Assembly (NCBI GenBank): GCA_963841435.1
Contig: CAWJCS010000004.1
Coordinates: forward strand, 544,001 to 608,000
Length of the DNA: 64,000 bases
Direction of reading: 5' to 3'
From: an uncultured delta proteobacterium
GTDB lineage: Bacteria > Myxococcota_A > Polyangia > Polyangiales > Polyangiaceae
This document shows, piece by piece, positions 798 through 32,009 of the stretch. Within the stretch, counting starts at the first letter, position 1. Each line of letters starts with the position of its first letter. Below the pieces are notes generated by a model. It was not told where the DNA came from. It did no database searches and saw only the letters and a program-made list of their open reading frames with translations. A program made the position numbers and the translations under genes.

Positions 798-1967
798 TAA
801 ACGTCCATCTTCATGTTCTCGCCCTCGACGGCGTGTACGTCCGCGATACGGAGAGCGGCGCGCTCGTGTTCGAGGAGCTCGGCACGCCCAGCCACGTGGA
901 GGTACTAGACGTCGCACGCCGCACCGCCGAGCGCATCGACAGGCTGCTCGGAAAGAGCGGCCGGAGCCTCGAGCGGGAAGGGGACGAGCCCGTGCCCGAG
1001 CTCCTCTCCGACGAGCCGAGCCTGGCCTCGTGCTATGCGGCCGCTGCCCAGGGCATCAGCGTGAGCGGCGAGCGAGCGGGAAAGCCCCAGCTCAGGCTCG
1101 TCCTCGGCACTGGCGCCACTGCCGAAGGAGCCGAGCTCAACCCGGACGAGCCCGTGGCCGAGCACCTCGGCGTCAACATCCACGCCAAGCAGTCGGTTGA
1201 ACGGGCGTGATCGCCGGCAGCTCGAGCGTTTGTGCCGTTACATCACGCGGCCTCCTGTTGCTCAGGAAAGACTCGAGCGGCTTGCCGACGGCCAGCTCGA
1301 GCTCCGACTCAAGCATGCGTGGAAGGACGGCACGCGCGCCGTCGTGCTCGAGCCCGACGACTTGCTGGTCCGGCTCGTCGCCGCGGTGCCCCCGCCACGC
1401 TGGCATTTACTTCGCTACTTCGGCGTCCTCTCGAGCCACTCACGGCTCCGCCGAGAAGTTGTTCCGCACCCGCCCGCTGATCCGAGTGCTACCGCGCCTC
1501 CGCCTGCTCCGGGCGATCAGCTCGAGCTCGACCTCGACGCTGACGCTGACGAGCCTGCTCCGAGAAAAAGATGGGCCTGGCTGCTCAGACATGTGTTCAA
1601 GGCAGATTTGGATATTTGTCCGCGCTGCGGTGGACCGATGCGCTGGCTCGAGGCGGCGGCTACCCGAGAGTCTGCTCGTGACCTGCTCGCTCGGCTCGGG
1701 CTCGGGCCCAGGCCGCCGCCGGCTCCACCCCGCACGCCGCTCGCGCAGCTCACGCTGCCGTTCGCGAGGTGAGCCGGCTTGCGCTGGTCGCTGCGCCAGG
1801 CGAGCGTCCGCGCGCGTTCTGGGTTCGGGGAGCTCTGGCACCTCAGAGCCTCCTTCCGCCTCGTCCACGACAGCACGTCCACCCCATAGGCGTGCGTTCT
1901 TACGGCCTCGCCGGCCTCGCCGTGGGCCCCGCCCGGGACCTTTTGCCAGATCGTTTCGCCTAGGCGC
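798..1967 (+). mobile_element. ISCR/IS91-like element copy A, 5'-truncated (1170 bp)
   Basis: Matches 7258..8426 by eye except CGAC->TGAAC at 1198-1202 (frameshift); ends ...TTTCGCCTAGGCGC. Confidence 0.95.
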
Positions 1968-2078
1968 CGCGGGCGTCGGGCGACCGCGAGTGCTTCGACT
2001 TCGACGCGGACGTGTCGATCGTCAGGGGAGAGTCCGTCCAGCTCATCGGGTCATTCAGGTCTTCGCCTGGTGAGGTTG

Positions 2079-3302
2079 TCATCGGCACGCGGCTCCGTGG
2101 TCATCGGCCCACGGGGTGCACGTCGCCGCGCATGCGCCGCACGGCGCCCGCGAGGGGGTACCTGATACGCAGGCGACGACCGTGTTGCCGTCGCAGCTTG
2201 CGAAGCTGCCCAGCCCGTTGCAGCTGTCTTCCGCGGGTGAGACACACCGGAAACCTCCGGCGGCGGAACTGAACCCGCACACGGAACCACGAGCCGGGCA
2301 GTCGTGGCTTCTTGGCGCCCCCGCGTCGCAAAAGAAAGCGCTCCCGCGCAGACAGCTTCCTTCGGAAGTGAGCCCGGAGCAGCCAGTGTCGGAGATGGCA
2401 GCGTGACTGAGAACGTGCTCGATGAACGGGGGCCAGTCCGCCAATCGATCGACGCGGGTGTAATGGTCTTGGCCGACGCAGCTCGAGTTCCCGTGGTCCA
2501 GCACGCCGATGATATTGACTTCCCCGCTATCCCCTCGCGCTAGGAGGGGTCCTCCGGAATCGCCCTCGCACGCTCCGCTGCGGCCAAAGCCGTCGACGAC
2601 GACGTGATCTTCGTCGATGCTCGCGATCTGTTCCACCACGAAGCGCAGTTGTCCGAGCTCACCCTGTTCCGTCAGTCCATACCCGGAAAGCTCGGCGGGC
2701 GAGCCCACCCAGGCCTCGGCCAGTGGCTCGCGTCTCGGCGAAAGAGGGCGCAACTCCGCTGCGGCAAGTCCGTCGGCTTCCAACAGGACGACGTCGAGAC
2801 CTTGGTGAAGCCAGGTACGCTCGATTGACGCGCTCTGGAAGGGCGGATTGCCGACTAGAATTAGGCCCGTCGGTGACCCTGAGTCAGTCGTTTCATCGAC
2901 CGCGCCGTCGAGGTCGCGATCAAAACAGTGCGCGGCCGACAGCACGAAACCCGGAGCAACGAGCACTCCGCTGCACAGGGTACGGGCCCCACCGCCCGCG
3001 GGGCTCGGCGAGGTGGGTAGGACCGCCACGATGGCGAGGGTCTGGCTGGCGTCGAGCGGCACGAGGCGCGCTGCTGGCGCGCCTCCGACGATGCCGGAGA
3101 CCCAGCACTCGGGGCGTTCGAGATCGTCGGATGAGCCGTTCGTGCACCCGGCAACGATGGATAGACCCGTCACGAACCAGATCAACGCCGCCGTCCGGTG
3201 CAGCGGGCAGGTGCGCGGCTTGCGTGGCCAGCTCTGACGGTGCCTCACCAAGGGGGGTTTGGTGCCGAGGCACCGTCCAGGTTCAGGTAGGCGTCGCGAC
3301 AC
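2079..3302 (-). CDS. Trypsin-like (S1) serine protease lipoprotein with Cys-rich C-terminus; true start probably downstream of 3302
   Basis: LSAAHC, LDVVLL and CEGDSGGP triad motifs; IVAGC lipobox. Confidence 0.85.
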   Translation of the reverse strand: MSRRLPEPGRCLGTKPPLVRHRQSWPRKPRTCPLHRTAALIWFVTGLSIVAGCTNGSSDDLERPECWVSGIVGGAPAARLVPLDASQTLAIVAVLPTSPSPAGGGARTLCSGVLVAPGFVLSAAHCFDRDLDGAVDETTDSGSPTGLILVGNPPFQSASIERTWLHQGLDVVLLEADGLAAAELRPLSPRREPLAEAWVGSPAELSGYGLTEQGELGQLRFVVEQIASIDEDHVVVDGFGRSGACEGDSGGPLLARGDSGEVNIIGVLDHGNSSCVGQDHYTRVDRLADWPPFIEHVLSHAAISDTGCSGLTSEGSCLRGSAFFCDAGAPRSHDCPARGSVCGFSSAAGGFRCVSPAEDSCNGLGSFASCDGNTVVACVSGTPSRAPCGACAATCTPWADDHGAACR

Positions 3303-3829
3303 GTGGCCACTGGGTCCTCTGGCGGCACGGCAACCGCTTGGTAGCCGTCAACGGCGACGCTGTTGACCAACACGCTGCCATCCTTCGCCTGGATCGTGAG
3401 CGTAGCTCGATCGCCTGGGCCCAGCGCTGCGGCAAGCTCGGGCTCGTAGGTGAGCCACACCTTGAACGCCACCACGGGTCCGCTGGCGCCCATGGATACG
3501 CCGGCGTACACATCCGCGTGAAGCGCCCCATTAGCGTCGGCGACGTGCTCTTCGCAAACGTCGTTGTCGGTGCAGCCGGGTCGCGACCAGTCTTCCTCCA
3601 ATGGTAGCACCATGTCGTGGGTGCACACGTTGTCCTTCAAGCAGGCCCGGATGGTGAGGCTCGAGCTTTCAGCCGGAAGCTCCCCAACCCAGATGGTGTC
3701 GCACGGAAGCGGATTCGTGTGAGCCTTCTCGGCCGCCGAACTCCCACAGCTCGGCACAAGCAGCGACCCTGCTGTTGCGAGCACGAGGCCCCGCAATCCC
3801 TGCACCACGAACGTGACTTGGTCCTTCAA
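3245..3829 (-). CDS. Hypothetical lipoprotein, paralog of 3889..4476
   Basis: MKDQVTF...LVPSC lipobox; highly similar to the upstream paralog over its whole length. Confidence 0.75.
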   Translation of the reverse strand: MKDQVTFVVQGLRGLVLATAGSLLVPSCGSSAAEKAHTNPLPCDTIWVGELPAESSSLTIRACLKDNVCTHDMVLPLEEDWSRPGCTDNDVCEEHVADANGALHADVYAGVSMGASGPVVAFKVWLTYEPELAAALGPGDRATLTIQAKDGSVLVNSVAVDGYQAVAVPPEDPVATCRDAYLNLDGASAPNPPW

Positions 3830-3888
3830 AGTTCCTCTCAGGGCAAGGCGTGTCGTAGCCGGGCTGCGGGGTCAGTTCGGACCGTGCC

Positions 3889-4476
3889 TCACCAAGGCGG
3901 GTCTGGTTGCGAGGAACCGTCCAGATTGAGGTAGGCGTTACGGCACATCGCCACCGGGTCCTCTGGTGGCACCGCGACCGTTTGATAGTCGTCCACGGCC
4001 GCGCTGTCAACCATCATGCTGCCGTCCTTCGCCTGGATCGTGAGTGTCGGTCGATCGCCGGGGGCGAACGTTGCCGCAAGCTCGGGATCGTAGTGGAGCC
4101 GCACGGCGAGCGCCACCACGGGGTCGCTGACACCCATGGATACGCCGGAATAGACATCCGCTTGAAGCGCCCCACTATCGTCCGCGACGTGGCGTTCGCA
4201 AACGTTGTCGTCGACGCAGCCGGGTCGCGACCAGTCATCCTCCAAGGGTAGCACCATGTCGTGGGTGCACACGTCGTCCTTCAAGCAGGCCCGGATGATG
4301 AGGCTTGCGCTTTGGGCTGGAAGCTCGCCAAACCAGGCGGTGTCGCACTGGAGCTCTGGATTCGAGTCACCCTTCTCGGGTGTCGAACCCCCGCAGCCCG
4401 CCGCAAGCAACGACCCTGCTGTCGCGAGCACGAGACGACGCAACACCTGCAACCCGAAAGTAACCTGGTCCTTCAT
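3889..4476 (-). CDS. Hypothetical lipoprotein, paralog of 3245..3829
   Basis: ATG at 4476 (MKDQVTF); LAAGC lipobox; shared CDT..CLKD..CTHD..C motifs. Confidence 0.75.
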   Translation of the reverse strand: MKDQVTFGLQVLRRLVLATAGSLLAAGCGGSTPEKGDSNPELQCDTAWFGELPAQSASLIIRACLKDDVCTHDMVLPLEDDWSRPGCVDDNVCERHVADDSGALQADVYSGVSMGVSDPVVALAVRLHYDPELAATFAPGDRPTLTIQAKDGSMMVDSAAVDDYQTVAVPPEDPVAMCRNAYLNLDGSSQPDPPW

Positions 4477-5840: not shown

Positions 5841-6117
5841 TGATCTTCCCCCGGTTTCGTGGACACCCCAGAAGGCGCGAGAATGCGCCGGGAGTGGACC
5901 ATGGAAAACAAGAAGCAACGAAGGAAGCGGCGCTCGTTCACGGCCGAGTTCAGGGCCGAAGCGGTTCGCCTGTGCAAGGTCGGCGACCGCAGCGTCACGC
6001 AGGTGGCCAAGGACCTCGACCTCACCGAGAACTCGCTGCGTGAGTGGGTCAAGCGCGCCGACATCGACGCCGGCAGTGGACCGCCAGGCGCGCTCACCAC
6101 AGCCGAGCGCGAGGAAC
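5841..6117 (+). mobile_element. IS3-family left end plus truncated orfA
   Basis: IRL-like TGATCTTCCCCCGGTTTCGTGGACACC; ATG at 5901 gives RRSFTAEFRAEAVRL...VAKDLDL...AEREEL (HTH_Tnp_1), then breaks off. Confidence 0.85.
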
Positions 6118-6233
6118 TCGAGCTTGAGCTCGAGCTGATCGCCAGGCGCCGGCGGCGGGACATGCGCGCTCGGATCAGCGGGCGGGTGTGGCACGACTTC
6201 TCGGCGGAGCCGCGAGTGGCTCGAGAGCAGGCC
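6117..6233 (-). mobile_element. Inverted fragment of a diverged sibling ISCR-like transposase
   Basis: Encodes GLLSSHSRLRREVVPHPPADPSAHVPPPAPGDQLELKLE versus GVLSSHSRLRREVVPHPPADPSATAPPPAPGDQLELDLD in the full copy. Confidence 0.85.
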
Positions 6234-6301
6234 AGAGTCGAGCGTCTCGACAGCCGTTTGGCCGGCGGGCGTGAGGTCAGATATCGCGATGGAGGCGCCG
6301 G

Positions 6302-6400
6302 TCATTCCTCTGGGACGCGCGTCGCCGCGCGCCTCGAGCGGCCTACCCGGGAGCTCGGGCGGGCAGCCCTCGAACGCTCCTCTATGTGGCCTTGCTCCAG
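6302..6400 (-). repeat. 99-bp internal fragment of rnpB (direct repeat of 32069..32167)
   Basis: 98/99 identical by eye; single difference at 6385 (T) versus 32152 (C). Confidence 0.95.
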
Positions 6401-6657
6401 CTTTGCTGCCCACGCCCCGGCCTGCTCGGCGCGTGCTCGTGTGCTCAGGCGGGCGCGCCGCGCGCAGCGTTGACGATGGGGTCGTCGTGGCCCGCCTTGC
6501 GCGCACTGCGCGCGCTGCCTGCGCGGGCCTTGCCCCTCCCAAACTTGTGCTCGGCCGCGGGCCTGCGCGCAAGCGGGAGGGGCCCGCGACCGGCGGCCGC
6601 GTGGCGAGCCAGTGGCCGCCGGGCATCGAGCAAGCGCGATCTGGTGAGAGAGCGCAT

Positions 6658-6686
6658 CGGCACGCGGCTGGCTCGAGCGCTCGAGC
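6658..6686 (+). promoter_or_regulatory. Possible sigma-54 (-24/-12) promoter overlapping a 16-bp palindrome just before the transposase start
   Basis: CGGCACGCGGCTGGCT has GG-N10-GC spacing; GCTCGAGCGCTCGAGC (6671-6686) is a perfect palindrome abutting GTG at 6687. Confidence 0.3.
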
Positions 6687-8231
6687 GTGGGCGATCCCGC
6701 GCACAGTCGGCAAACAGAGCACGGCACTACCCGTCGGGACGGCTACGCGCGAAGGCGACCGGAAGACGGCGTGCTCTACCAGACGGTGGCCGAGCGCTGG
6801 CCGGCGTTTCGCGAGCGGATGGAGGAGTCGGGCGGGCTGCCGAAGTTCGTGGTGAGGGAGTTCGAGGAGTTCTTGAAGTGCGGCATCATCGAGGAGGGTT
6901 GTCTCCACCTCGTGTGCCGTAGCTGCGGCTACTCCGAGGTCGTGGCGCTCTCCTGCAAGAAGCGAGGGTTCTGCCCCAGTTGCCTGGGGCGGCGGATGGC
7001 GGATACGGCGGTCCACTTGGAAGAGCGTGTGCTGCCGTGCGTGCGCATTCGGCATTGGATTTGTTCCTTGCCCTGGGGCCTCAGAGCCTTGCTCGGCTAC
7101 GACCGCGAGCTCTGCGCGAAGGTCGTGAGCGCGTTCGTCGGTGAGCTCAGCCGCTCGCTCAAGAAGAGAGCGAAAGGAGAGTTCGGCCTTGCGAGCGTCG
7201 AGGATGCGCACACCGGCGCCGTCTGCACCGTGCAGAGGACGGACGGGGCTTTGCGACTAAACGTCCATCTTCATGTTCTCGCCCTCGACGGCGTGTACGT
7301 CCGCGATACGGAGAGCGGCGCGCTCGTGTTCGAGGAGCTCGGCACGCCCAGCCACGTGGAGGTACTAGACGTCGCACGCCGCACCGCCGAGCGCATCGAC
7401 AGGCTGCTCGGAAAGAGCGGCCGGAGCCTCGAGCGGGAAGGGGACGAGCCCGTGCCCGAGCTCCTCTCCGACGAGCCGAGCCTGGCCTCGTGCTATGCGG
7501 CCGCTGCCCAGGGCATCAGCGTGAGCGGCGAGCGAGCGGGAAAGCCCCAGCTCAGGCTCGTCCTCGGCACTGGCGCCACTGCCGAAGGAGCCGAGCTCAA
7601 CCCGGACGAGCCCGTGGCCGAGCACCTCGGCGTCAACATCCACGCCAAGCAGTCGGTCGACGGGCGTGATCGCCGGCAGCTCGAGCGTTTGTGCCGTTAC
7701 ATCACGCGGCCTCCTGTTGCTCAGGAAAGACTCGAGCGGCTTGCCGACGGCCAGCTCGAGCTCCGACTCAAGCATGCGTGGAAGGACGGCACGCGCGCCG
7801 TCGTGCTCGAGCCCGACGACTTGCTGGTCCGGCTCGTCGCCGCGGTGCCCCCGCCACGCTGGCATTTACTTCGCTACTTCGGCGTCCTCTCGAGCCACTC
7901 ACGGCTCCGCCGAGAAGTTGTTCCGCACCCGCCCGCTGATCCGAGTGCTACCGCGCCTCCGCCTGCTCCGGGCGATCAGCTCGAGCTCGACCTCGACGCT
8001 GACGCTGACGAGCCTGCTCCGAGAAAAAGATGGGCCTGGCTGCTCAGACATGTGTTCAAGGCAGATTTGGATATTTGTCCGCGCTGCGGTGGACCGATGC
8101 GCTGGCTCGAGGCGGCGGCTACCCGAGAGTCTGCTCGTGACCTGCTCGCTCGGCTCGGGCTCGGGCCCAGGCCGCCGCCGGCTCCACCCCGCACGCCGCT
8201 CGCGCAGCTCACGCTGCCGTTCGCGAGGTGA
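6687..8231 (+). CDS. IS91-family/ISCR-type HUH transposase (Zn-binding N-terminal domain plus Y2_Tnp)
   Basis: CRSC...SCKKRGFCPSC zinc motif, NVHLH HUH motif, ERLCRYITRP single-Tyr ISCR-type motif, LRYFGVL, C-terminal CPRCGG. Confidence 0.93.
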   Translation: MGDPAHSRQTEHGTTRRDGYARRRPEDGVLYQTVAERWPAFRERMEESGGLPKFVVREFEEFLKCGIIEEGCLHLVCRSCGYSEVVALSCKKRGFCPSCLGRRMADTAVHLEERVLPCVRIRHWICSLPWGLRALLGYDRELCAKVVSAFVGELSRSLKKRAKGEFGLASVEDAHTGAVCTVQRTDGALRLNVHLHVLALDGVYVRDTESGALVFEELGTPSHVEVLDVARRTAERIDRLLGKSGRSLEREGDEPVPELLSDEPSLASCYAAAAQGISVSGERAGKPQLRLVLGTGATAEGAELNPDEPVAEHLGVNIHAKQSVDGRDRRQLERLCRYITRPPVAQERLERLADGQLELRLKHAWKDGTRAVVLEPDDLLVRLVAAVPPPRWHLLRYFGVLSSHSRLRREVVPHPPADPSATAPPPAPGDQLELDLDADADEPAPRKRWAWLLRHVFKADLDICPRCGGPMRWLEAAATRESARDLLARLGLGPRPPPAPPRTPLAQLTLPFAR

Positions 8232-8426
8232 GCCGGCTTGCGCTGGTCGCTGCGCCAGGCGAGCGTCCGCGCGCGTTCTGGGTTCGGGGAGCTCTGGCAC
8301 CTCAGAGCCTCCTTCCGCCTCGTCCACGACAGCACGTCCACCCCATAGGCGTGCGTTCTTACGGCCTCGCCGGCCTCGCCGTGGGCCCCGCCCGGGACCT
8401 TTTGCCAGATCGTTTCGCCTAGGCGC

Positions 8427-8983
8427 TCAAGACGGCGAAGACCGACTACACCGAGCACGCCGACAAGCACGACGTCTCCAACATCGTGCGTGGCATCATG
8501 AAGGAGCAGCACCGCGCGATGTTCGCCGCTCTGCGCGCGGGCTCGCTCGACGCGGCGCTCGAACGAGCGATTGGTCCCCTGTCCGAAGTTCCCGCGAAAG
8601 GCCCTGCCAGCCGCCGTCCGGAAAGCGTGCGTCCCGCGCATCCGCGCGAGCAGAATAGCCCCCGCCGCGGCCCACCACAGAACCCCGCCCTGCAGGGCGT
8701 GTCGCCCTCCGTGTCGCCTCCTACCTCTGACGACTTCGACGCAGGCACACTGCGCGATCTCCCGCCCGCGTCGCTGTCGCAGCCAGCGCCGCGCTCGCGC
8801 AAGACCAACCAGCCGCCGCGCCGCAGTCGCCCCCCGTCGCCGCATCGCCCGGCGGCCCAATTCGCCGGGGCGCCGGAAGCCCGTGCCCGCTCCATCTTCG
8901 GTGACGAAGCGATCAGCGAGCAGACCTTGGACGAGGTCATCCTGAGCTATCTCGCCGAGGATCTCGACGACTCGGGCGAGTGA
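8427..8983 (+). pseudogene. 5'-truncated conserved myxobacterial hypothetical protein, fused to the element terminus
   Basis: Frame opens at the junction as LKTAKTDY...IMKEQHRAMFAALRAG and ends FGDEAISEQTLDEVILSYLAEDL; N-terminus absent; family recognised from memory. Confidence 0.6.
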
Positions 8984-9146
8984 GCCGCGTCGCGCTCGCG
9001 GGGCGGCCTGTTGTGGGTGCGAGCTGCTCGATTCTTCCGGGCTCGTCGCGACGCGCAGTTCACCGCGCGCCGTTGACGCCCGGTGCGCACTGGGTTTATG
9101 CTCCTAGACGCGTGGGCGGCTGATCCGCGGCGCGCTGGAGGGTTCA

Positions 9147-12561: not shown

Positions 12562-13367
12562 GCGAGCGGGCATCGCGCGCTTTTTTCGCCCGCGTGAGCA
12601 CGACAAGTGGCGCGCTCCGCACCCGCTCCCGCGCCTTGCACCTCGGCCTGGCAGAGGCAGGGACGCAGCGACCCGTCTCGCTCGGACGGGCAGAGTGAGT
12701 CAGATGACAGGAGCATTGCACCCTGCCAGGTGCTGAGTGGAGGCTTCGTCGATGTCACGCCTAAGCTCTTATGATCTCTGGATCCTCACAGCGCTCGTCG
12801 CGGTCGGCGCTTGCGGGCGCTCGACGCGCGAGCCACCGAGCGACGGAGGGCGGTCGGGAGTTGGCGGTGGCGGAACGAGCGGGGGTACGATCGGTGGAGT
12901 TGGTGCAGTAGGCGCTGCCGGCGTTTCTGCAGGAGGCTCGCAGGGAGGCACGGGGACAGGCGGTACGGCGACAGGCGGCGCGGCCGCGCGCGGAGGAGCG
13001 AGCGCCGGCACATCGGCGAGCGGAGGCGTGAGCCCGACTGGCGGCTCAGGAGCGGTGAGCGCCGGTGGTCAGGGCGAGGACAGTGGCGAAGGGGGCGCGC
13101 CGGCGGGCTCCCCGGGCCGCGGCGGCGACTCGGGCCGTGGCGGACAGAGCGCGGGGCGCGGGGGAACGGCTGGCACGAGCGGGGGGACCGGAGGCGACGC
13201 CGCTGGAGCGGCGGGAGCCACGAGCTGGCGGGACTTGCGGTGCGTTGCGGCCGAACTGCAGAGATCATGCCTTAAGCAGGAACCCAATACCGTGGTCGTC
13301 AACTGCAACGTAACCGCTGCACGGACCCCATCTGTCGAGCACGCGCTGGTGCTGGCAGAAGTCGTGC

Positions 13368-13664
13368 ATGCGGAAGCGGTACACGGCTGAGCAGCGGGAG
13401 CGGTTGGTCGCTGAGGTAGCGGCGGGCGAGGCGGTGCCGGTGGTGGCGGCGCGGATGGGTGTGGGGGCCTCGGCGGCATACCTGTGGGTCAAGGAGGCAC
13501 GAGAGGGGAGCAAGCCGACGTTCGCGAAGCTGGTGCGGGCGTTAACGCCGGCGGCGTCATCGTCGATGGTGCTCGAAGTGGGACGAGCTCGAGTGCGCGT
13601 CGAAGCTGGCTTCGACGCCGAGCTGCTCAGGCGGGTCGTGTCGGCGCTGAGCGACGCATCGTGA
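13368..13664 (+). CDS. tnpA: IS66 TnpA (HTH)
   Basis: RKRYTAEQRERLV...YLW...VEAGFDAELLRRVV. Confidence 0.85.
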   Translation: MRKRYTAEQRERLVAEVAAGEAVPVVAARMGVGASAAYLWVKEAREGSKPTFAKLVRALTPAASSSMVLEVGRARVRVEAGFDAELLRRVVSALSDAS

Positions 13665-14002
13665 TCGGGCAGGGGCTTCCGGTGTACGTGGCGCTCGAGC
13701 CGGTGGACATGCGGTTCGGATACGAGCGGCTCGGCGGGGTCGTGCGTGAGCGGATGCAGGCGGAGCCGAGGTCGAAGGCGCTGTTCGTTTTCGTCGGCAA
13801 ACGCGGGCACACGATGAAAGTGCTGACCTGGGACGGCTCGGGCACGATCGTGGTTCACAAGCGGCTCGACGCGGGGAAGTTCGAGCTGCCGAAGGCGACG
13901 CGAGTCGGCGATCAGCACGTGATCGTGAGCGACGCGATCTTCGAGGTGATCTACAAGGGCGTCGCAACGGCACCGAGGAAAGTTCGCCGGCGCGTGCACT
14001 GA
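13661..14002 (+). CDS. tnpB: IS66 accessory protein TnpB
   Basis: VYVALEPVDMRFG...LFVFVGKR...KVLTWDGSG...KRLDAGKF. Confidence 0.9.
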   Translation: MIGQGLPVYVALEPVDMRFGYERLGGVVRERMQAEPRSKALFVFVGKRGHTMKVLTWDGSGTIVVHKRLDAGKFELPKATRVGDQHVIVSDAIFEVIYKGVATAPRKVRRRVH

Positions 14003-14070
14003 GTCGGAGCTCGCAATTTTCTTACGCGCCCGCTTGAGAAATTCGATCGCGCTCATGTATAGAGGAGAGC

Positions 14071-15750
14071 GTGTCGAGCACGCGATCGGACGAAGCGAAA
14101 CCGCAGCTATCGCCGGACGAGCTCACCATGCTGCTCTCGACGCTCCAGGCCGAGGTCGTGGGGCTCAAGACGCGTTTCTCCGAGGCCGTGACGCGCAACG
14201 AGGCGCTCGAGGAAACGATCGTCAACCTGACGCACGAAAACGAGCTACTCAAGCGCCGCATCTACGGCAACAAAACGGAGCGGACCGGGACGAGCGAGCT
14301 TCAGCTGACGCTCGGCAACCTGCTCGACTCGGAAAAACAGCTTCAGAAGGAGCTCGACGCCGCCGTGGCCAAGGCGCGTGGCGATGACGACGTTCCTGCC
14401 GCCCCGCCCGCGGGCGCCTCGCGACCGAAGCCCAAGGGCCGGCGAGATTTGTTGGCGAGCGACCTGCCGCGCGTCCTGTTCGAGATCCGCGACGAGGAGC
14501 TCGAGAAGACGGGCAAGCTCATCGGCTGGGACTACGCGCCGCAGCTGATGTACCGCCGAGGCGGCTGGTCGGTCCTGGTCAAGCGCACGGCCAAGTACGA
14601 GATCCCCGGCAAGGACGGCCCGACGGTGCTCGGCGTCGAGACGCCGAAGACGTTGTTCCGGCGCGGTCTCCTGCATTCGTCGGTCGTGGCACACGTCTTG
14701 GCGCAGAAGTTCTCGCTCGGCGTGCCGCACTACCGACTCGAGCAGCACCTCGCCGGCCAGGGTGTCGACCTCGACCGCGGTCTCATGTGCCGCTACGTGG
14801 AAGAAGCGGGTAGCACGTGCGGAGCCACCATCGTCCACGCCATGTGGCAGGACGCGCTCGAGAGCGGCTCGGTGATCTCGACCGATGCAACGTCGGCGCT
14901 GATCCAGCCTGAAAAGAGCCAAAATGGCCAGCGGCAGGCCTGCAAGAAGGGCCACTTCTTCACCGCCGTCGTGGACACCGACCACGTGCTGTTCGCGTAC
15001 GCCGAGAAGCACACGCAAGACTTCGTGAAGAAGCTCTTCGGCGGCTTCACGGGATTTCTCCAGTCCGACGCCAGCAACGTCTACGACATCCTGGACCGGG
15101 GACCCCCCAGCGAAGATGACGAGACCGTCACCCTCGTCGGATGTTGGGCTCACTGCAGGCGCTATTTCTTCGAGGCCGCGATCTGCAAACACCAGATCGG
15201 CATCCAAGGCCTCTTGCGCATTCGCGCCATCTACGCTGCTGACGACGCGTTCCGGAAGCTGCCGCCCGCCAAACGCAAGGCGCTGCGCGATACGCACCTG
15301 CGCCCCCTCATGCTGAGCTTCTTCGAGTGGGTGAAGGCCACGCGCCTCACCACGCCCGGCCGCAGTCTCGCAACCAAAGCGCTCGGCTACGCGTTCAACC
15401 AGGAGAACGAGCTCTTGCGCGTGCTCGACGACGGCCGTCTGCCCCTCGACAACACGCGCTCCGAACGCTCGCTGCGAAAAATCGTCGTGGGTCGCAAAAA
15501 TTGGATGTTCTACGGCAGCGACACCCACGCCGAGAGCGCCGCCGCCATCTTCAGCCTGATCGCCTCCTGCCGGCTTCACCGGCTCGACGCCGAGCAGTAC
15601 CTCGACGAGATCCTCCGCGTCCTGCCCTACTGGCCCCCGACTCGCTACCTCGAGCTCGCTCCGAAGTTCTGGCCCGCCACCCGTGCCAAGCTTCGCGCCG
15701 AGGAACTCGACGCACCGCTGTGCCCGTTCACCATCCCGCCGGCGGCCTGA
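14071..15750 (+). CDS. tnpC: IS66 DDE transposase TnpC
   Basis: GCWAHCRRYF, LDNTRSERSLRKIVVGRKNWMF, SLIASC motifs. Confidence 0.93.
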   Translation: MSSTRSDEAKPQLSPDELTMLLSTLQAEVVGLKTRFSEAVTRNEALEETIVNLTHENELLKRRIYGNKTERTGTSELQLTLGNLLDSEKQLQKELDAAVAKARGDDDVPAAPPAGASRPKPKGRRDLLASDLPRVLFEIRDEELEKTGKLIGWDYAPQLMYRRGGWSVLVKRTAKYEIPGKDGPTVLGVETPKTLFRRGLLHSSVVAHVLAQKFSLGVPHYRLEQHLAGQGVDLDRGLMCRYVEEAGSTCGATIVHAMWQDALESGSVISTDATSALIQPEKSQNGQRQACKKGHFFTAVVDTDHVLFAYAEKHTQDFVKKLFGGFTGFLQSDASNVYDILDRGPPSEDDETVTLVGCWAHCRRYFFEAAICKHQIGIQGLLRIRAIYAADDAFRKLPPAKRKALRDTHLRPLMLSFFEWVKATRLTTPGRSLATKALGYAFNQENELLRVLDDGRLPLDNTRSERSLRKIVVGRKNWMFYGSDTHAESAAAIFSLIASCRLHRLDAEQYLDEILRVLPYWPPTRYLELAPKFWPATRAKLRAEELDAPLCPFTIPPAA

Positions 15751-15928
15751 GCTCGGCGCGAGCGCGGCATCGCGACCCCCGGCCGAGCTGCCCTTTCAAG
15801 ATGGGGTCGGTGTAGCGGTTACACTGCAACGGAGCTGACGTGGTGGAGGCGATGGAAGCCGGCTGCACTGCCTGCACCTACGGGCAGGCGTACTGCGATT
15901 ATGGCGGCGGCCCCGTCCCACCCGATTG

Positions 15929-17773: not shown

Positions 17774-18490
17774 CCTCCTGTTGCTCAGGAAAGACTCGAG
17801 CGGCTTGCCGACGGCCAGCTCGAGCTCCGACTCAAGCATGCGTGGAAGGACGGCACGCGCGCCGTCGTGCTCGAGCCCGACGACTTGCTGGTCCGGCTCG
17901 TCGCCGCGGTGCCCCCGCCACGCTGGCATTTACTTCGCTACTTCGGCGTCCTCTCGAGCCACTCACGGCTCCGCCGAGAAGTTGTTCCGCACCCGCCCGC
18001 TGATCCGAGTGCTACCGCGCCTCCGCCTGCTCCGGGCGATCAGCTCGAGCTCGACCTCGACGCTGACGCTGACGAGCCTGCTCCGAGAAAAAGATGGGCC
18101 TGGCTGCTCAGACATGTGTTCAAGGCAGATTTGGATATTTGTCCGCGCTGCGGTGGACCGATGCGCTGGCTCGAGGCGGCGGCTACCCGAGAGTCTGCTC
18201 GTGACCTGCTCGCTCGGCTCGGGCTCGGGCCCAGGCCGCCGCCGGCTCCACCCCGCACGCCGCTCGCGCAGCTCACGCTGCCGTTCGCGAGGTGAGCCGG
18301 CTTGCGCTGGTCGCTGCGCCAGGCGAGCGTCCGCGCGCGTTCTGGGTTCGGGGAGCTCTGGCACCTCAGAGCCTCCTTCCGCCTCGTCCACGACAGCACG
18401 TCCACCCCATAGGCGTGCGTTCTTACGGCCTCGCCGGCCTCGCCGTGGGCCCCGCCCGGGACCTTTTGCCAGATCGTTTCGCCTAGGCGC
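17774..18490 (+). mobile_element. ISCR/IS91-like element copy C, 5'-truncated (717 bp)
   Basis: Identical by eye to 7710..8426. Confidence 0.95.
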
Positions 18491-18639
18491 ACCTCACCGC
18501 CCTGGGCCCCGCCTCCTCTAACGACCGCTTCGCCCGCCCAACGGCCCCGCCGTTTTCCCAGTTCGATTTTCCTTCGCGCCCACCCGTGAAAACGCCACGC
18601 CGGCGCCGCCAACGCCGAGCGTCTGGACTGCTTATGCCC
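18491..18639 (+). mobile_element. Possible oriIS-end remnant of a different ISCR/IS91 element
   Basis: GCGTCTGGACTGCTTATGCCC (18619-18639) resembles the ISCR oriIS end GCGTTTGAACTTCCTATACCC as recalled. Confidence 0.45.
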
Positions 18640-18720: not shown

Positions 18721-18736
18721 GGGAAGGAGCAGCGCG

Positions 18737-20996
18737 ATGGGCGGTGCAATCGATGGGCAGTGGAGATGGGCTCGGAAGCATGCGTCGTGGCTCGGGCTTC
18801 GGGGGCCATGGGTGTACCAAGTACTGTGCGGTGCGGTCGCAGTCTGGGCCGTGGGATGTGCACCCAGCGAGGACACAGCTGAAGCCACGGACAACGACGC
18901 CGCTTCGTTGTCGTTGGAACCGCGGCCTTACAGGCATCCCCTCCTGAACGCACACGACGTTGGGAAGGCTGATGGCCTACCGGATGGCGTTCTGCCATTC
19001 GTCGACCTCAAAGATACTCCGCGTGGCGATCGCTACGCGATGTCCGAGGGGGTCGATGTAGATGAAGCCGGCTACACTCGCTCACATTCGGGCATCTCGG
19101 TGCTGCGGCGGGGGCCGGCCCCGACTGAACAGCCAGTGAAGGAGCCAAGGTCGCCCGGCCCGTCGCAGCCAGCACGCCTGGGGTCTGGTCTACAGCGCGC
19201 GCTCGCAGAGGCGAGCCCCGCCGAGTCGTTGGTCGTCGAAATCTCCATCGAACGGGTTTTCCCGCCCCTGACACGACTCATGCAGCGGGCCATTGCGGCA
19301 GGTCAGATCTTCGACGACGCTTCCCGCGAGGCTTGGCGCACGTCCGCGCTCACCCAGAAGGAGCTCGCAGTCCAAGCGGCGCAGGAGCCGATCGTCGCGC
19401 GTGTCCGCGATCTGGGGGGCAGCGTATTAGCACGCTACGAGAATCTGCACCAAATCGTCGCGTCCGTCCCTGCCAGTCGCGTGCTGGATTTGCTCGCCGA
19501 GCCGTCGGTGCAGCACCTCGATGCGGTCGAGACCCCGGCACTGGAATGGCCCGATGGTATTCCGCTCCGAACAGGCCAGCAGCTGGACCAATTTATCGAC
19601 GACGGATTCAATGGTGAGAGTGGTGGGAGCAGCGACGTTCTCTTTCGCCATTGCCGAAGGAGACGACAACGGCGCGATCGGGATCGACGAAGGCCTGTAT
19701 GCCTACAAAGAGGACTCATCCGGCACTAGAATTCGAGCGCTGTACGATTGTGGTTCGTCGAGTTGTACTAGCGCTTCCGAGTACTCCAATCCGAGCTGGC
19801 ACACCACGAAAGTGTCCGCGATCCTGTTCGGCGACCTGCAGGATGGCCAAGACCCGAACTACACCGGCTCGGATGACCGCAAGGCGCGATCCGGGTTCGC
19901 GACTGAAGCAAAGGGGTACTTCTACACATTGGGAAATTTCGGGGCGGCCGCGAATCATATAATCGGGATATCCACATACGAACCGGCTCTCGTGAACCTC
20001 TCCTGGGGTTTTGATGGTGGCGATTGCTCAGGGGAGGACGCGGGATCAGTCTCCGTTGACGAGATGTTTGAGGACGGAACGTTGACGTTCAAGTCGGCCG
20101 GGAATGACGGGCATTCAAGCAGTACCGACTGCAAGGTCACCGATCCTGGACCCGCGATGGGGGCGTTCGTCGTGGGCTCTTATGGGGATGTCAACTCGAG
20201 CACGCTTGACAACGTCCGAACCGACGAAATCTGCGCGAACTCGGCCCGCGGAGGCACCACGTCCGACGGCAAGGGTCGCTCCATGGTCAACCTGGTCGCG
20301 TACGCCCCGCGATCCAGGATCCCCCGCCCCGGCAACGTCTATAGCACCGTGGGCTGTGGAACGAGCTACGCGGCGCCAGCGGCGGCCGGCGCGGCCATCG
20401 ATTTCGCGGATCATTACTTCATGACATATGGGTCTCTGATCTTTGATCCCGGAATCCTCCACGCCGCGATGTTGCTCATGGGGGACAGGAGCAAAGAGGG
20501 CGGTGGAACGCAGTCCAATAAGTTCAACAACTTGTACGGCGCCGGGCGCATGCGAATGCGCCGCCTGGACGACACTGGGATGGACAATCCATGGGGGTTC
20601 GAAATGGGCTCCGTCTGCATCGACAATGGAGAGTGGTATCACCTAGACATCAACGGCGGGAACGCACTCAGCTCTGATGTCGATGTCATCAAGGCGGTCG
20701 CTTGGTGGTACGATCCTCGACTCGAGACGGGAACCCAAATCGATGATGTTGATCTTCAATTGGCGCGAAACGGAACGAGTGTGCAATACAGCACCAGTTC
20801 GGATGACGAGAAGGAACGAGTAAAATATACCACCGGTGGGACATCGGCGACATACGAGCTCATCTTTCACGGAGCGAGCGTTACCGCCGACAACGCCGGT
20901 TGCGGCACGAACTCCATGCTCGTCTACTATGCCTACTTCTACGAGGATTCGGACCGTGATGACGGTTCGGCGCTCGACGAGATTCTACCCGAGTAG
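18737..20996 (+). CDS. S8 (subtilisin-like) serine peptidase lipoprotein with one frameshift near 19643
   Basis: WAVGC lipobox; WHTTKVS, KSAGNDG, GTSYAAP; removing one T joins DVLF to AIAEG. Confidence 0.8.
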
Positions 20997-21027
20997 GACT
21001 CAGGTCAAAAAGAGGAGATACGAAGAC

Positions 21028-21600
21028 ATGAGATCCAAGATCCTGACTGGCTCCGTAGCAGTGGCATTGTGTGCCTACGCCTGTGGCTCGGACGACGAGC
21101 CCGACCATGCCGGTTCAGGAGGATCGGGTGGTCGCGGCGGCACAGGGCAGGGTGGCGCCTCCTCAGGCCAAGCGGGAGCAGGAGGCGTTTCCGGCCGGAG
21201 CGGCTCCGGCGGCCTCGCCGGCAGCTCCGGCGGCTCCGGTGGCGCAGGCGATTCCTCGATCGCGGGAATGGCAGGCGCGCCCGTGGCGGGCGATGCTGGG
21301 GCGGGAGGTGAGCGCTGCTGGGTGACCATCGCTCGGCCCATCGAGGCGGATGCCTGGTGCGTGGACTACTCGAGCGAGCTTCCTGTGACGGTGTGCTTAC
21401 CTCCTGGTACGCCCTGCAACGACTATTCGGGCTGCGCTCGTCGCCAGAGCGACGGTGCCCCCTTCTTCGTCACGAGTCCTTCCTGCTTCGTACGCGGGAC
21501 CGAAGGCTGGTACAATTGCACCCGGGAAGACAGCGAGCGGCCCCTCCCGTACTGCCCCGAGAACGCTGCGGGGGCTGGCGGCGAGGGCGGCGGTAGCTGA
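21028..21600 (+). CDS. Gly-rich lipoprotein with Cys-rich C-terminus
   Basis: RBS AGGAG; MRSKIL...AYAC lipobox. Confidence 0.75.
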   Translation: MRSKILTGSVAVALCAYACGSDDEPDHAGSGGSGGRGGTGQGGASSGQAGAGGVSGRSGSGGLAGSSGGSGGAGDSSIAGMAGAPVAGDAGAGGERCWVTIARPIEADAWCVDYSSELPVTVCLPPGTPCNDYSGCARRQSDGAPFFVTSPSCFVRGTEGWYNCTREDSERPLPYCPENAAGAGGEGGGS

Positions 21601-21612
21601 AGAACGCGTCGC

Positions 21613-23310
21613 GTGCGTCCCGCGTCACGCGTGCGAACCCCCCAACCTCCGCGACACACTGTTTGGTTGCGGCTGTGGCACCGCCTCCGGTCGGCTCTCT
21701 TGCCTCGTGCGTCGCGCGTCACAATAGCGCTAAGTCTAGTCATCGCCGTTGCGGCGATTCCGCGACTTGCGGCGCTTTCTGCCGACCTTCCGCATATCCA
21801 CCACCCGGACGAGGCCAACAACTTGAACCGCGTCCAGAAGGTGTTGCGTACTGAGGACTGGAACCCTCACTTCTTTCGCTACCCCGCTCTTTCAATCTAC
21901 GCCGTGTCGGCCGTTCGCCGAATTCTCGGCTCGTTTGGCATACTGAATGGCCGGGTAGCGCAGGCGGACCTAAACAGTGTCGCCCTTGGCGTCGCGACGG
22001 CTCCTTCTACAGGAGTCGTCGTGGTTGCGCGGGGCGTGACGGCGCTATTGGGGATCGGGATGGCAGTGTGCGTATTTCTTCTTGGTCGCCAATTGACTGG
22101 TAGTCTAGCAGTTGCCGTGATCGCGGGTTCCCTTGTTGCGATATCCCCGACGGCAATCAGGTACGCACGGATCTTCTCGCCTGATACGTTTGCGGCGTTC
22201 TTTACATACCTTGCGGTCTTGGCTGCCCTCCCTCTTACAGAACGCAAGACAACGCTACGCTACGCTCTCGCGGGTGCGCTCGCGGGACTTGCAGCGGCTG
22301 GCAAGTACAACGCGGCCCTGGTCGTGATTGCGCCAGTTTCCGCCCATATTCTCTATTCTGACATGCGAGAGCTGAGATGTCTTCGGAGCCTCAAAGGCAT
22401 GGCGATACTCGGCGCAGCCGCAACGCTCGCATTTCTCGCACTGAATCCATTTATTCCGGTTGAATGGACCGCAGCTCTCGGCGACATCAAGGCCGAGCAG
22501 CGCCACTACACCGGTGGGCAAGCAGGTTCCGAGGGTGACACATTACTCTGGTACACGCGGTATCTCTGGAGCGTTGAAGGTGGTACCATTGTACTTGCGC
22601 TCTACGGCGTCATTCATGCTGTGCAGAGACACGTTAGGAACCTGCTCATCCCGGTGATCTTTACCTTTGTCTACTGCGCCGGAATTTCGATGTTTGCGGT
22701 CCGGAATGGACGTGCCCTTCTGCCCGTGCTTGGGCTAGTCGAGGTGCTCGCAGCGGTCGCATTGGTCGCCATGGCCGAGACAGCGCGGCGCTGGGTTCGG
22801 GCTGTCGCGGGTGTCGCGGCGGTTTGTCCCCTCATGATTCGCTCATATCCGGCATTGGAGCAGCTGACGCTCGCCCAGAAGATTGCATCCGATAATGCGG
22901 GGCTGTGGATTGAGCGGCACGTCCCTAGCAAGACGGTCATCGCCGTCGAGGCTGGAGGGCCAATACTTGACAGGCGACGCTATCGCATTGTCGCCGAGGA
23001 TTTTCTTCACGAAATGCCCATGCTGGGCTACAAGCGTGCAGGCGTTCTGATATTTGCCGTGTCGGCTGGCAATAGGTACCTCCGGGGGCCGAACCGCTAC
23101 CGGCGAAGGACGGCACTCTATCGCGAGATCGCGAGTCGGAATCGCCTAATCGGGCGGTTTCGATCGCCGCGACTGGTCGGACCTTATGCGGATCTGGTGG
23201 GGGTGATAAGCAACCCTCTACTTCAGCGCGCCTGGATTGGTTACGATGCGGTCGGTGCTGCTTCCTGTGCTCTGTACCGGGCGCCGTGGGCGGCCCCTGT
23301 GGCCCAATAG
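21613..23310 (+). CDS. GT-C fold (PMT/family 39-like) membrane glycosyltransferase; lower GC; C-terminus may be chimeric
   Basis: HHPDE...WNPHFFRYP, GLAAAGKYN and many TM segments. Confidence 0.8.
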   Translation: MRPASRVRTPQPPRHTVWLRLWHRLRSALLPRASRVTIALSLVIAVAAIPRLAALSADLPHIHHPDEANNLNRVQKVLRTEDWNPHFFRYPALSIYAVSAVRRILGSFGILNGRVAQADLNSVALGVATAPSTGVVVVARGVTALLGIGMAVCVFLLGRQLTGSLAVAVIAGSLVAISPTAIRYARIFSPDTFAAFFTYLAVLAALPLTERKTTLRYALAGALAGLAAAGKYNAALVVIAPVSAHILYSDMRELRCLRSLKGMAILGAAATLAFLALNPFIPVEWTAALGDIKAEQRHYTGGQAGSEGDTLLWYTRYLWSVEGGTIVLALYGVIHAVQRHVRNLLIPVIFTFVYCAGISMFAVRNGRALLPVLGLVEVLAAVALVAMAETARRWVRAVAGVAAVCPLMIRSYPALEQLTLAQKIASDNAGLWIERHVPSKTVIAVEAGGPILDRRRYRIVAEDFLHEMPMLGYKRAGVLIFAVSAGNRYLRGPNRYRRRTALYREIASRNRLIGRFRSPRLVGPYADLVGVISNPLLQRAWIGYDAVGAASCALYRAPWAAPVAQ

Positions 23311-23314
23311 TCGC

Positions 23315-23400
23315 TGTGATGGTGCCGGAAAATCTGCTGCCAATCGTCCCGGAAAAATCTGCGGTCTCCCGGAAGGGAGGCCAGACATGATGGAATCGGC
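23315..23400 (+). mobile_element. IS21-like left-end fragment
   Basis: Begins TGTGATGGTG; repeated CCGGAAAA(A)TCTGC; RBS GGAGG plus ATG, then breaks off. Confidence 0.45.
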
Positions 23401-23470
23401 ATGATCCACAGCTGGATCTGCGCCAAGCTCTTGCTGCAGCTGGTCAGCGCGCGCATTGCAAGTAGGGCGC
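23401..23470 (+). mobile_element. Short IS4-like transposase C-terminal fragment
   Basis: Encodes IHSWICAKLLLQLVSARIA, similar to an IS4 DDE C-terminal W..AKLL motif. Confidence 0.35.
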
Positions 23471-23471
23471 C

Positions 23472-23630
23472 CTCCACCTTACCGAGACTTGCTGCCGAAC
23501 GACCAAAGTGCCGCTCGAACCGCTGGATGCACCGCAGGTAAGTCACCCGCGTGTTGAGCGGTGTACCCGAGAGCTCGAGCTCCTCGGCAACCCTCTTTCT
23601 CAGTTGTTCCTTCACGGCGATCCTCCTGTC
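23472..23630 (-). pseudogene. N-terminal fragment of a tyrosine integrase (SAM-like domain)
   Basis: RBS AGGAGG plus GTG at 23615: VKEQLRKRVAEELELSG...TRVTYLRCIQRFERHFGRS. Confidence 0.7.
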
Positions 23631-23649
23631 AACGGTGCTCGACGCGAGC

Positions 23650-24249
23650 ACCGAGCCGTCCAGGATCTGGGCGTAACTCAAGCCGGAAACTTCGAGGGCT
23701 CCAACATCCCGACAATGCGCTCGAGCGAGCACCCAAAGGCGTCCGACATCAAGCTTTGGGACCGCTCCCGCCCGAAGCTCATGGACGCACGCCGTCGGCG
23801 ACCACAGCCGGCGTACGACCCCAAGATGGTCACCGCCTGGAATGGGCTTGCGATCGGAGCCCTGGCCCTGGGGTATCGAGTCTCCGGTGAGCAGCGCATC
23901 CGTGACGCTGCCGAGCGGGTCGCAGAGGCCATCTGGCGCTTGAACCATCACGCGGGCGGCGATCTCGCTCGAAGCTCGAACGGCAAGCAGGCCGGCAGCT
24001 CTGCCGTGCTCGACGACTTCGCCTTCCTCAGCAACGGGCTCGTCGAGCTGTTCGAGGCGACCGGCAACCCGGTGTACCTGGAGCACGCCACTACCCTGGC
24101 CACGCAGGCGATGGACCGATTCGCGAATCCAAGCGGCGGATGGTTCCTGACCTCCGGCACGGAGCAGGAGCCTTTGGGGCGGCGGATCGAGGTCTCCGAC
24201 GGCGTGGAGCCCTCCGGGAACGCTGCGATGCTCATGACGCTCGCGAAAC
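23650..24249 (+). pseudogene. Internal fragment of a YyaL/SPATA20-type thioredoxin-domain protein
   Basis: GNFEGSNI, PAYDPKMVTAWNGLAI, LDDFAFL..GLVELFEATG, DGVEPSGNA; cut at both ends. Confidence 0.85.
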
Positions 24250-24886
24250 CACGCGCGCCGTCGTGCTCGAGCCCGACGACTTGCTGGTCCGGCTCGTCGC
24301 CGCGGTGCCCCCGCCACGCTGGCATTTACTTCGCTACTTCGGCGTCCTCTCGAGCCACTCACGGCTCCGCCGAGAAGTTGTTCCGCACCCGCCCGCTGAT
24401 CCGAGTGCTACCGCGCCTCCGCCTGCTCCGGGCGATCAGCTCGAGCTCGACCTCGACGCTGACGCTGACGAGCCTGCTCCGAGAAAAAGATGGGCCTGGC
24501 TGCTCAGACATGTGTTCAAGGCAGATTTGGATATTTGTCCGCGCTGCGGTGGACCGATGCGCTGGCTCGAGGCGGCGGCTACCCGAGAGTCTGCTCGTGA
24601 CCTGCTCGCTCGGCTCGGGCTCGGGCCCAGGCCGCCGCCGGCTCCACCCCGCACGCCGCTCGCGCAGCTCACGCTGCCGTTCGCGAGGTGAGCCGGCTTG
24701 CGCTGGTCGCTGCGCCAGGCGAGCGTCCGCGCGCGTTCTGGGTTCGGGGAGCTCTGGCACCTCAGAGCCTCCTTCCGCCTCGTCCACGACAGCACGTCCA
24801 CCCCATAGGCGTGCGTTCTTACGGCCTCGCCGGCCTCGCCGTGGGCCCCGCCCGGGACCTTTTGCCAGATCGTTTCGCCTAGGCGC
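24250..24886 (+). mobile_element. ISCR/IS91-like element copy D, 5'-truncated (637 bp)
   Basis: Identical by eye to 7790..8426. Confidence 0.95.
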
Positions 24887-32007: not shown

Positions 32008-32009
32008 GT

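Follow-up and report, generated by a model that had tools for sequence, protein, structure and literature searches.

Same-strand, 5'-truncated copies of an ISCR-like element with one oriIS-type end beside rnpB in a Polyangiaceae genome

The window analysed here is a stretch of 64,000 nucleotides (C4:544001-608000) of the genome of an uncultured delta proteobacterium of the family Polyangiaceae (denoted G000; 7.78 Mb, 68-69% GC, six contigs labelled with C, e.g. C2-C6). To the left of the RNase P RNA gene, rnpB, the window contains four copies of one insertion sequence (IS), an ISCR-like member of the IS91 family, interspersed with other genes and gene fragments (Table 1). The copies were mapped by a repeat search and self-BLAST of the window and are numbered from left to right; the second, which ends at 8426, is the full copy and is referred to as the master. 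The initial annotation of this DNA, made from the sequence alone, described four near-identical copies in the same orientation, and this was confirmed, with identities of 99.8-100%: copy 1 matches 7258-8426 at 99.83% over 1170 nt, the difference including a 1-nt indel that breaks the reading frame, copy 3 matches 7710-8426 at 100% over 717 nt, and copy 4 matches 7790-8426 at 100% over 637 nt. Chance is far from sufficient to explain identical repeats as long as these (637-1170 nt). The three truncated copies lack 1024, 1476 and 1556 bp, respectively, from the front of the 2193-bp element.

All four copies share the 3' end ...GATCGTTTCGCCTAGGCGC, and the first base beyond it differs (T, C, A, T), whereas the internal start points of the truncated copies are all different. 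No target duplication was found: the left and right flanks of the four window copies and of a copy on contig C6 have no direct repeat in common. The ends and flanks thus bear out the proposed combination of one fixed 3' end, variable internal starts and lack of target duplication. Two details of that description had to be changed. The count of four holds for the family of the master copy (family A), but a fifth ori end (an element end bearing the ori motif), on the same strand and belonging to a different subfamily, had been overlooked directly next to copy 3. The full copy, placed earlier from 6401 on, begins at about 6234 and so includes a piece of antisense rnpB: the repeated unit is delimited by an incomplete copy on contig C5 (C5:896869-897894, minus strand), which is identical to the window from 6233/6234 on and lacks the ori end. 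Apart from that piece, exact family A is represented elsewhere in the genome by one more 5'-truncated copy (C6:170190-171591).

Table 1. Features of the window that are discussed in the text (window coordinates; aa, amino acids)
Feature	Position	Strand	Remarks
5'-truncated copy 1	798..1967	+	= 7258-8426 of full copy; 1-nt indel frameshift; ends at oriIS
IS3-family orfA fragment (HTH_Tnp_1)	5851..6119	+	cut at 6119; 97% identical to C5:871623-871891
Inverted 116-nt fragment of another ISCR-like subfamily (transposase aa 399-437)	6118..6233	-	abuts left end of full copy
Complete element, 2193 bp	6234..8426	+	delimited by second copy on contig C5
Leftmost 62 bp of element	6234..6295	+	hairpin 3 nt from boundary, candidate surrogate terminator
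105-bp piece of RNase P RNA gene inside element, antisense to rnpB	6296..6400	+	97% identical to 32063-32167
Intact transposase gene, 514 aa	6687..8231	+	Zn_Tnp_IS91 and Y2_Tnp domains; HUH residues H194/H196, single tyrosine Y338
Predicted oriIS terminal motif CAGATCGTTTCGCCTAGGCGC	8406..8426	+	195 bp past transposase stop codon
3' gene part, aa 48-242 of a 242-aa protein	8427..8989	+	paralogue C2:978290-979018, 72% aa identity; begins at ori junction
IS66-family element (TnpB 13484-14002, transposase 14071-15750)	13310..15822	+	99% identical to C2 pieces; inside 581-bp direct repeat
5'-truncated copy 3	17774..18490	+	= 7710-8426 of full copy, 100%; ends at oriIS
Last 89 bp of subfamily C, including its own ori motif	18491..18579	+	directly abuts copy 3
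YyaL/thioredoxin-domain-like internal fragment, aa 241-434	23667..24249	+	74% aa identity to C2:81054-82751; ends at truncation point of copy 4
5'-truncated copy 4	24250..24886	+	= 7790-8426 of full copy, 100%; ends at oriIS
DUF429 gene fragment, profile positions 53/54-213 of 214	24882..25376	+	begins at ori junction
Intact rnpB (bacterial RNase P RNA class A)	32007..32390	-	right border of 66-kb strain-specific island

The transposase of the master copy matches the Pfam families PF14319 (Zn_Tnp_IS91; 5.4e-15, aa 37-127) and PF04986 (Y2_Tnp; 1.1e-22, aa 177-405). Its best match in NCBIfam, ISCR_clade_Ia, scores 260 bits, far below the cut-off of 925, which marks it as a distant relative outside clade Ia, and the IS91 equivalog NF033538 scores 93.6 bits, below the 125-bit cut-off. 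In a search of plasmids, the annotated matches among the 25 listed were mainly ISVsa3 (ISCR2) and ISCR1, with 35-37% identity over ~89% of the length. The NVHxH (NVHLH) HUH motif and LERLCRYI(T/S)RP, in which Y338 is the only tyrosine, are invariant in an alignment with ISCR1 and ISVsa3; one catalytic tyrosine is characteristic of ISCR, compared to two in IS91. The closest transposases come from metagenome-assembled genomes (MAGs) titled Polyangiaceae. The earlier assignment is supported by the profile matches and by the identity to ISCR1 and ISCR2: the element is a distant ISCR-like member of the IS91 family, encoding a predicted rolling-circle HUH transposase, and the complete copy is potentially active. 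A single active transposase behind all copies, as the initial annotation had it, agrees with the one intact gene and the 99.8-100% identical partial copies, but the repeated deposition of cargo attributed to this enzyme is unsupported (see below).

The fixed end, 195 bp past the stop codon, is comparable in position to the ends of ISCR1 and ISVsa3 (GGTTTATACTTCCTATACCC and GCGTTTATTCTTCCTATAC, at what we take to be their exact end positions), which lie ~215-225 bp past the stop codon and have the same CGTTT...CCTA layout; its motif, CAGTTCG-N5-CCTWGGCGC, differs from theirs. Across 77 related loci taken from other genomes (given L numbers below; most are MAGs titled Polyangiaceae, Polyangiales or Myxococcales), the motif occurs 25 times on the strand of the gene and twice on the other strand, ~190-240 bp past the gene, and the last ~30 nt are conserved in all 15 aligned ends of related elements from other MAGs. 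When the source genome was searched with the pattern CAGTTCGNNTNNCCTWNGCGC, allowing at most one mismatch, 31 matches were obtained (24 forward, 7 reverse), compared to 0 with the reversed control. These comparisons show the invariant 3' end to be the predicted oriIS, that is, the origin of transposition of the element, as had been suggested from its position downstream of the transposase. The window copies are thus very probably ISCR-like, with an oriIS as their anchor. At this end, the master copy is followed by TCAAG (CTTGA on the other strand); TCGA or TCAA follows 5 of the 35 ori ends of the genome, compared to a background of 1.26% (p = 7.5e-5), and the other 30 flanks differ.

Truncation in this genome is polar well beyond the window. 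The genome-wide count, run as a check on the initial annotation, yielded 35 ori ends after curation by hand. Three of these belong to full-length elements and 2 retain the N-terminal part of the gene but are deleted internally; another 16 have lost their 5' end and keep part of the gene, and the remaining 14 are solo ends without a coding remnant of their own, so that the front of the element is missing at 30 of the 35. The same asymmetry is apparent from the tblastn pieces, 16 of which contain the C-terminus only and 3 the N-terminus only (binomial p = 0.002). Two further ISCR-like subfamilies contribute to the pattern. Subfamily B shares ~83% DNA identity with family A and includes five 5'-truncated copies that finish at one ori. 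Subfamily C, with 75% protein identity to A, has an intact gene (C5:365604-367157, within a full copy at C5:365604-367372), and three of its ori ends, all in one direction and one of them belonging to a full copy, lie within 10 kb at C5:361-371 kb. Polar truncation is thus found across the genome, in three subfamilies, and is no peculiarity of the window locus. The proposed locus-specific builder of an array was not borne out, and the cluster, which consists of copies of one ISCR-like IS, exemplifies a tendency of the whole genome.

Another MAG has a full copy with two further copies of its last 1180 bp arranged head to tail behind it, the joints linking an ori to an internal site (L034:3528-7067); these tandem copies appear to show ori-anchored copying directly in a related genome. 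At locus L044, a full copy is followed by one head-to-tail copy, and the repeated tail is 1180-1188 bp long across L034 and L044. A third MAG contains a tandem duplication of the last 22-24 nt of the ori end (L040:4382-4426). Other arrangements of the element were also noticed. At C2:42888-43398, the part of the gene encoding aa 18-183 is fused directly to the last ~19 nt of an ori end. At three places in a further genome (G109; C16:2363275-2367382, C16:2054071-2058193 and C14:676345-680468), the match to the transposase falls into two parts, aa 2-111 and aa 99-506, ~2.5 kb apart on one strand, which looks like a variant of the element with the same 2.5-kb insertion, possibly a passenger or an intron.

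The window's five ori ends, of which four belong to family A and one to family C, are all on the plus strand, as are 27 of the 35 in the genome, on contigs that are arbitrarily oriented. Within clusters of ori ends, grouped by hand, the majority strand accounts for 4 of 6, 5 of 5, 4 of 5, 5 of 7 and 4 of 5 ends. A bias toward one replication strand was rejected as the source of the common orientation: C4 and C6 have positive GC skew and C5 has negative skew, and the ends are mostly on the plus strand in all three. Stacking of new copies at a resident ori was considered as a general rule, but it fits 3 of the 35 ori ends and is thus occasional.

The left end of the element is more complex. The candidate terminator hairpin (6237-6251) has a 6-bp stem, GTCGAG-CGT-CTCGAC, next to a boundary defined by two copies, and its fold is no better than those of shuffled sequences (z = -1.1). 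Between this left end and the transposase gene lies the rnpB piece. Three contexts were found for the ancestral left end, TTGCTGCCCAC...: behind a 194-bp piece of the 3' part of rnpB that runs past the rnpB 3' end (C6:177030-177223); behind unrelated DNA (C4:705443); and, in family A, behind the 105-bp rnpB piece and 62 bp of other DNA. The family A and C6 rnpB pieces have changes in common that are absent from the resident rnpB, so that both go back to a single old insertion next to an rnpB sequence. Altogether, the element carries along 167 bp from beyond its ancestral left end, which are present also on contig C5. This small extension is the only direct sign of capture of upstream DNA.

The array lies in the right half (window 1-31976) of a 66-kb island (C4:510031-575977) with lower GC content, 0.59-0.71 per kb. 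When the rnpB-adjacent locus was compared among relatives as a check, the distance from rnpB to the homologue of C4:509.7-510.0 kb was 0.14-5.9 kb in 5 of 6 same-genus relatives, which are without the island, compared to 65.9 kb here. The 3' flank of rnpB varies from 0.1 to 6 kb among relatives and therefore looks like a hot spot for accessory DNA. None of the 13 matches to the PF00589 integrase family in the genome falls in C4:510-576 kb, the nearest being at C4:615346, in agreement with the earlier statement that no integrase is involved. No transposase or recombinase was detected among the 28 open reading frames (ORFs) tested in C4:508-544 kb, which had been pre-filtered for third-position GC content of at least 0.70 and for the longest ORF at each position, and no resistance genes were found among the ORFs tested.

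The DNA between the copies encodes two trypsin-like proteases, two paralogous small proteins, a 910-aa protein, a subtilase and a PMT_2 glycosyltransferase, and also contains an IS66-family element within a 581-bp direct repeat, a YD-shell-like ORF and the YyaL-like fragment. The initial annotation regarded these as secreted-protein genes; lipoprotein-type N-termini, judged by eye, are present in 5 of 11 inter-copy genes. Where genes adjoin the IS ends, the break coincides exactly with the junction, and the missing parts, such as the 5' part of the gene fragment that follows the master copy and the N-terminal part of the DUF429 protein, were not found anywhere in the genome. Apart from IS pieces and the 89-bp remnant of subfamily C, no second copy of the inter-copy DNA with at least 95% identity exists in the genome, so that there is no donor or second copy of any unit in it, and the inter-copy DNA was not found in 40 relatives. 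The junction fragments are 72-79% identical to resident genes dispersed over C2 and C3, which is approximately the between-species divergence in the genus; judging from this level of identity, they fit pieces acquired from a relative.

One reconstruction, in which the YyaL-like fragment and copy 4 were inserted as a unit into the DUF429 gene, with 23508-23666 as the missing N-terminus, was rejected: Pfam found nothing in this segment, and its alignment to the sole homologue among 60 genomes of the family scored 20, compared to a shuffle mean of 24. Because the missing parts of the junction genes are nowhere in the genome and the unit-insertion reconstruction failed, large-scale mobilisation of cargo between the copies is not supported. 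The earlier proposals that the copies brought cargo with them and that each was a simple insertion of a unit are thus unsupported. The label 'integron-like' likewise proved to be an analogy with neither attachment sites nor cassette structure behind it (no attC model was run).

Several further features of the inter-copy DNA were noted. The two copies of the 581-bp direct repeat (11836-12415 and 12730-13310) are 96% identical, and the second is interrupted by the IS66-family element; beyond it, 15823-15931 and 15901-16413 contain an ORF with a weak match to teneurin/YD-shell, and the repeat region may be an array of Rhs-type tip cassettes. Two adjacent paralogous ORFs (3216-3828 and 3860-4475) that share ~82% DNA identity lie between the trypsin-like protease genes; their N-termini are lipoprotein-like, and they match no Pfam family. 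The segment 25710-26639 is 98% identical, in reverse, to C2:28846-29775, where it lies immediately next to the end of an IS66 copy, and is a second repeated segment common to two IS-rich regions.

In IS91, as described in PMC13181058, transposition starts precisely at oriIS, proceeds via a bottom-strand circular intermediate and ends at terIS without target duplication, and termination at terIS is missed in 1-14% of events. For the present element, we give about an even chance to the analogous reading, that rolling-circle copying has a precise start at oriIS but a sloppy finish, so that partial copies anchored by the ori are deposited locally. The transposase would nick exactly at the end of ...CCTAGGCGC, and a strand would be peeled from oriIS toward the 5' end of the transposase gene. 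If termination is imprecise in the single-tyrosine group, so that events are aborted or end early, the copies would always keep oriIS and lose a variable front. The partial copies would land near the master in the same orientation by local hopping, and joins of an ori to an internal site, as in L034, could form when the free 3' end attacks a transposase-ori intermediate. The genes between the copies would then be resident DNA of the island rather than cassettes brought by the element, and the flanks would have been scrambled later by homologous exchange between copies and insertions of other IS. For the more specific claim that the truncations arose during transposition and not afterwards, we see about as much for it as against it.

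A number of observations weigh against copying with a sloppy finish. For none of the truncated copies could a simple insertion be demonstrated, as left and right flanks never rebuild one target, and empty sites were not recoverable in 30 same-genus genomes, including those of the solo ori ends C6:883954 and C3:167052, as the flanks consist of accessory DNA and are unconserved. The truncation points have no common motif or microhomology at four family A and five family B junctions (GAAC-like left flanks at 3 of the 4 family A junctions are not repeated in family B). No conserved hairpin was found at the ori: RNAalifold predicted 0 pairs for 15 ends, and single-strand folds were no better than those of shuffled sequences. 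The uniform strand of the five window ends amounts to p = 0.06 only, and another ISCR-like piece follows within 500 bp after the ori at just 3 of the 35 ends. Four other MAGs show a weak excess of C-terminal over N-terminal fragments, 33 vs 25 in the raw counts (p = 0.18) and ~22 vs 10 after rough merging by hand of copies split by frameshifts. About 15 further transposase fragments, counted by hand, are without an ori end, and therefore non-polar decay operates too. Finally, copy 1 and the C5 piece complement each other exactly: the former contains the element from 7258 on and the latter up to 7257, broken between the same two bases, and each is joined to unique DNA. This complementary break may reflect a rearrangement rather than an aborted event, although a site-specific break is also possible. 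A test for inversion by ORF continuity over the hypothetical ancestral joint was uninformative at 69% GC, and neither the C5 flank nor C4:542500-544000 (0.8-2.3 kb to the left of copy 1, window 1-797 being excluded) matches any of 30 same-genus genomes.

Because no simple insertion could be demonstrated, deletion after full-length insertion gives the same picture and stays a serious rival, which we consider possible but rather unlikely. Under this ordinary decay of an IS-rich island, full-length elements inserted and then lost their fronts through deletions, exchange between copies and insertions of other IS, with the excess of ori ends a by-product, for instance of instability on the terminator side or of a 21-nt motif being easier to detect than a short coding remnant. 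The IS3 and IS66 pieces and the inverted fragment of another subfamily in the region, the internal-deletion derivatives (C2:43398, C5:884022 and C5:888126), the fragments without an ori, the discontinuous flanks at every copy, as inter-copy exchange would leave them, and the two halves of one element represented by copy 1 and the C5 piece all fit such decay. However, random deletion should affect both ends equally, contrary to the tblastn counts on their own; the 100% identity of copies 3 and 4 to the master leaves little time for an insertion plus a separate deletion at each site; and the tandem 1180-bp ori-to-internal-site copies of the other genome are hard to make by simple deletion. An assembly artefact, that is, truncated copies or junctions produced by repeat-driven misassembly of a metagenome-derived genome, could also account for the complementary halves on C4 and C5 as a wrong join, and the reads give no confirmation: three sequencing runs compared with 16000-24300 yielded six perfect contigs, all from run X1, with depth in 9 of 30 bins; this sole run with a signal contains 12% of the sampled words, none of its contigs spans a truncation junction, so that it is no evidence either way, and its single contig that enters copy 3 runs on into full-copy sequence. 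We nevertheless consider an artefact very improbable, given that a misjoin inside a repeat yields normal full repeats, not internally cut copies with unique DNA on both sides, and that the same polar pattern recurs at ~30 sites on five contigs in three subfamilies as well as in independent assemblies of other genomes.

Gene capture in the manner of ISCR is quite improbable in our estimation. It would amount to chromosomal ISCR-type capture in soil myxobacteria, unrelated to resistance, in which terminator-less, ori-only mini-elements, driven in trans by one master, carry along the DNA to their left and, through serial deposition into a polar array, stitch lipoprotein and protease genes and gene pieces of related species together beside rnpB. 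The 167 bp beyond the ancestral left end, including the 105-bp rnpB piece, that were carried to contig C5 are in favour of capture, as is the single strand of the five window ori ends; the junction fragments related to dispersed resident genes could have been picked up in a related genome; and units of ISCR2, cargo and ISCR2, with intact or partial ISCR2, are described on resistance plasmids (PMC7722449, PMC6506621). On the other hand, rolling-circle transposition leaves the donor in place, and still no second copy of any unit or cargo is present in the genome and none of the 40 relatives holds the cargo, hence there is no known donor; the predicted N-terminal part of DUF429 is absent both from the left of the proposed unit and elsewhere; and the cargo would include other IS elements and many intact, resident-looking genes.

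Taken together, the array is a real and fairly ordinary trace of element copying and no new gene-collecting system, and the integron analogy is not borne out. Of the initial interpretation, the ISCR-like copies, the oriIS, the intact transposase and the lack of an integrase stand, whereas cargo, unit insertion, likeness to integrons and a locus-specific builder are not supported. A distant ISCR-like clade, abundant in high-GC soil genomes, is represented here. To our knowledge, almost all that is known of ISCR elements comes from the resistance plasmids of clinical bacteria, and the mechanism of their transposition has largely been inferred; no paper on ISCR-like elements in myxobacteria was found in a limited literature search. 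An apparently intact master with many frontless copies that keep the ori offers support from natural data for a precise start at oriIS and an imprecise finish, and the intact transposase and the sharply defined 21-nt end are available for bench work. If the capture reading were true, the ~30 stumps per genome that retain the ori would document, in natural DNA, the direction and the sloppiness of single-tyrosine rolling-circle transposition, a process that, as far as we know, has hardly been studied by experiment for ISCR elements.

Among known systems, the element is closest to ISCR1 and ISCR2/ISVsa3, with which it shares the transposase architecture, at 35-37% identity and with the same HUH and LERLCRYI(S/T)RP single-tyrosine motifs, the precise oriIS-type end ~200 bp downstream of the gene with its CGTTT...CCTA core, and the lack of target duplication. 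Bracketing of other genes by full and partial copies in the same orientation is likewise described for ISCR2 of resistance elements (PMC7722449, PMC6506621). Unlike these, the present element resides on the chromosome of a high-GC soil bacterium, with no resistance genes in the ORFs tested, scores 260 bits against the clade Ia cut-off of 925, has its own ori motif and is very abundant, with 31-35 ori ends per genome. As for gene mobilisation of the ISCR kind, no cargo between its copies is duplicated, and the 167-bp extension is common to two copies. With IS91, IS801 and IS1294 the element shares the Zn_Tnp_IS91 and Y2_Tnp domains of the transposase, and with IS91 an oriIS downstream, a candidate for the terminator found upstream in IS91, no need for inverted repeats and no target duplication; one-ended transposition of IS91 co-mobilises DNA on the terminator side (PMC13181058). 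The TCAAG flank of the master and the TCGA or TCAA at 5 of the 35 ori ends may be further points of likeness to IS91, whereas the score of 94 bits against the 125-bit cut-off, the one tyrosine in the motif, the lack of an orf121-like upstream gene and the absence of the GTTC/CTTG tetranucleotide from most flanks set the element apart. Integron arrays are similar in outward look alone, as a one-directional series of units in an accessory locus; here, the island has no integrase, and the 'units' in the window contain IS elements and broken genes and have no cassette boundaries, as judged without an attC model. A more distant parallel is found in LINE (long interspersed nuclear element) retrotransposons and T-DNA (transferred DNA), in which one end is fixed by the start or attachment of an enzyme and the other is variable; the enzymes are unrelated, and the resemblance is one of analogy only.

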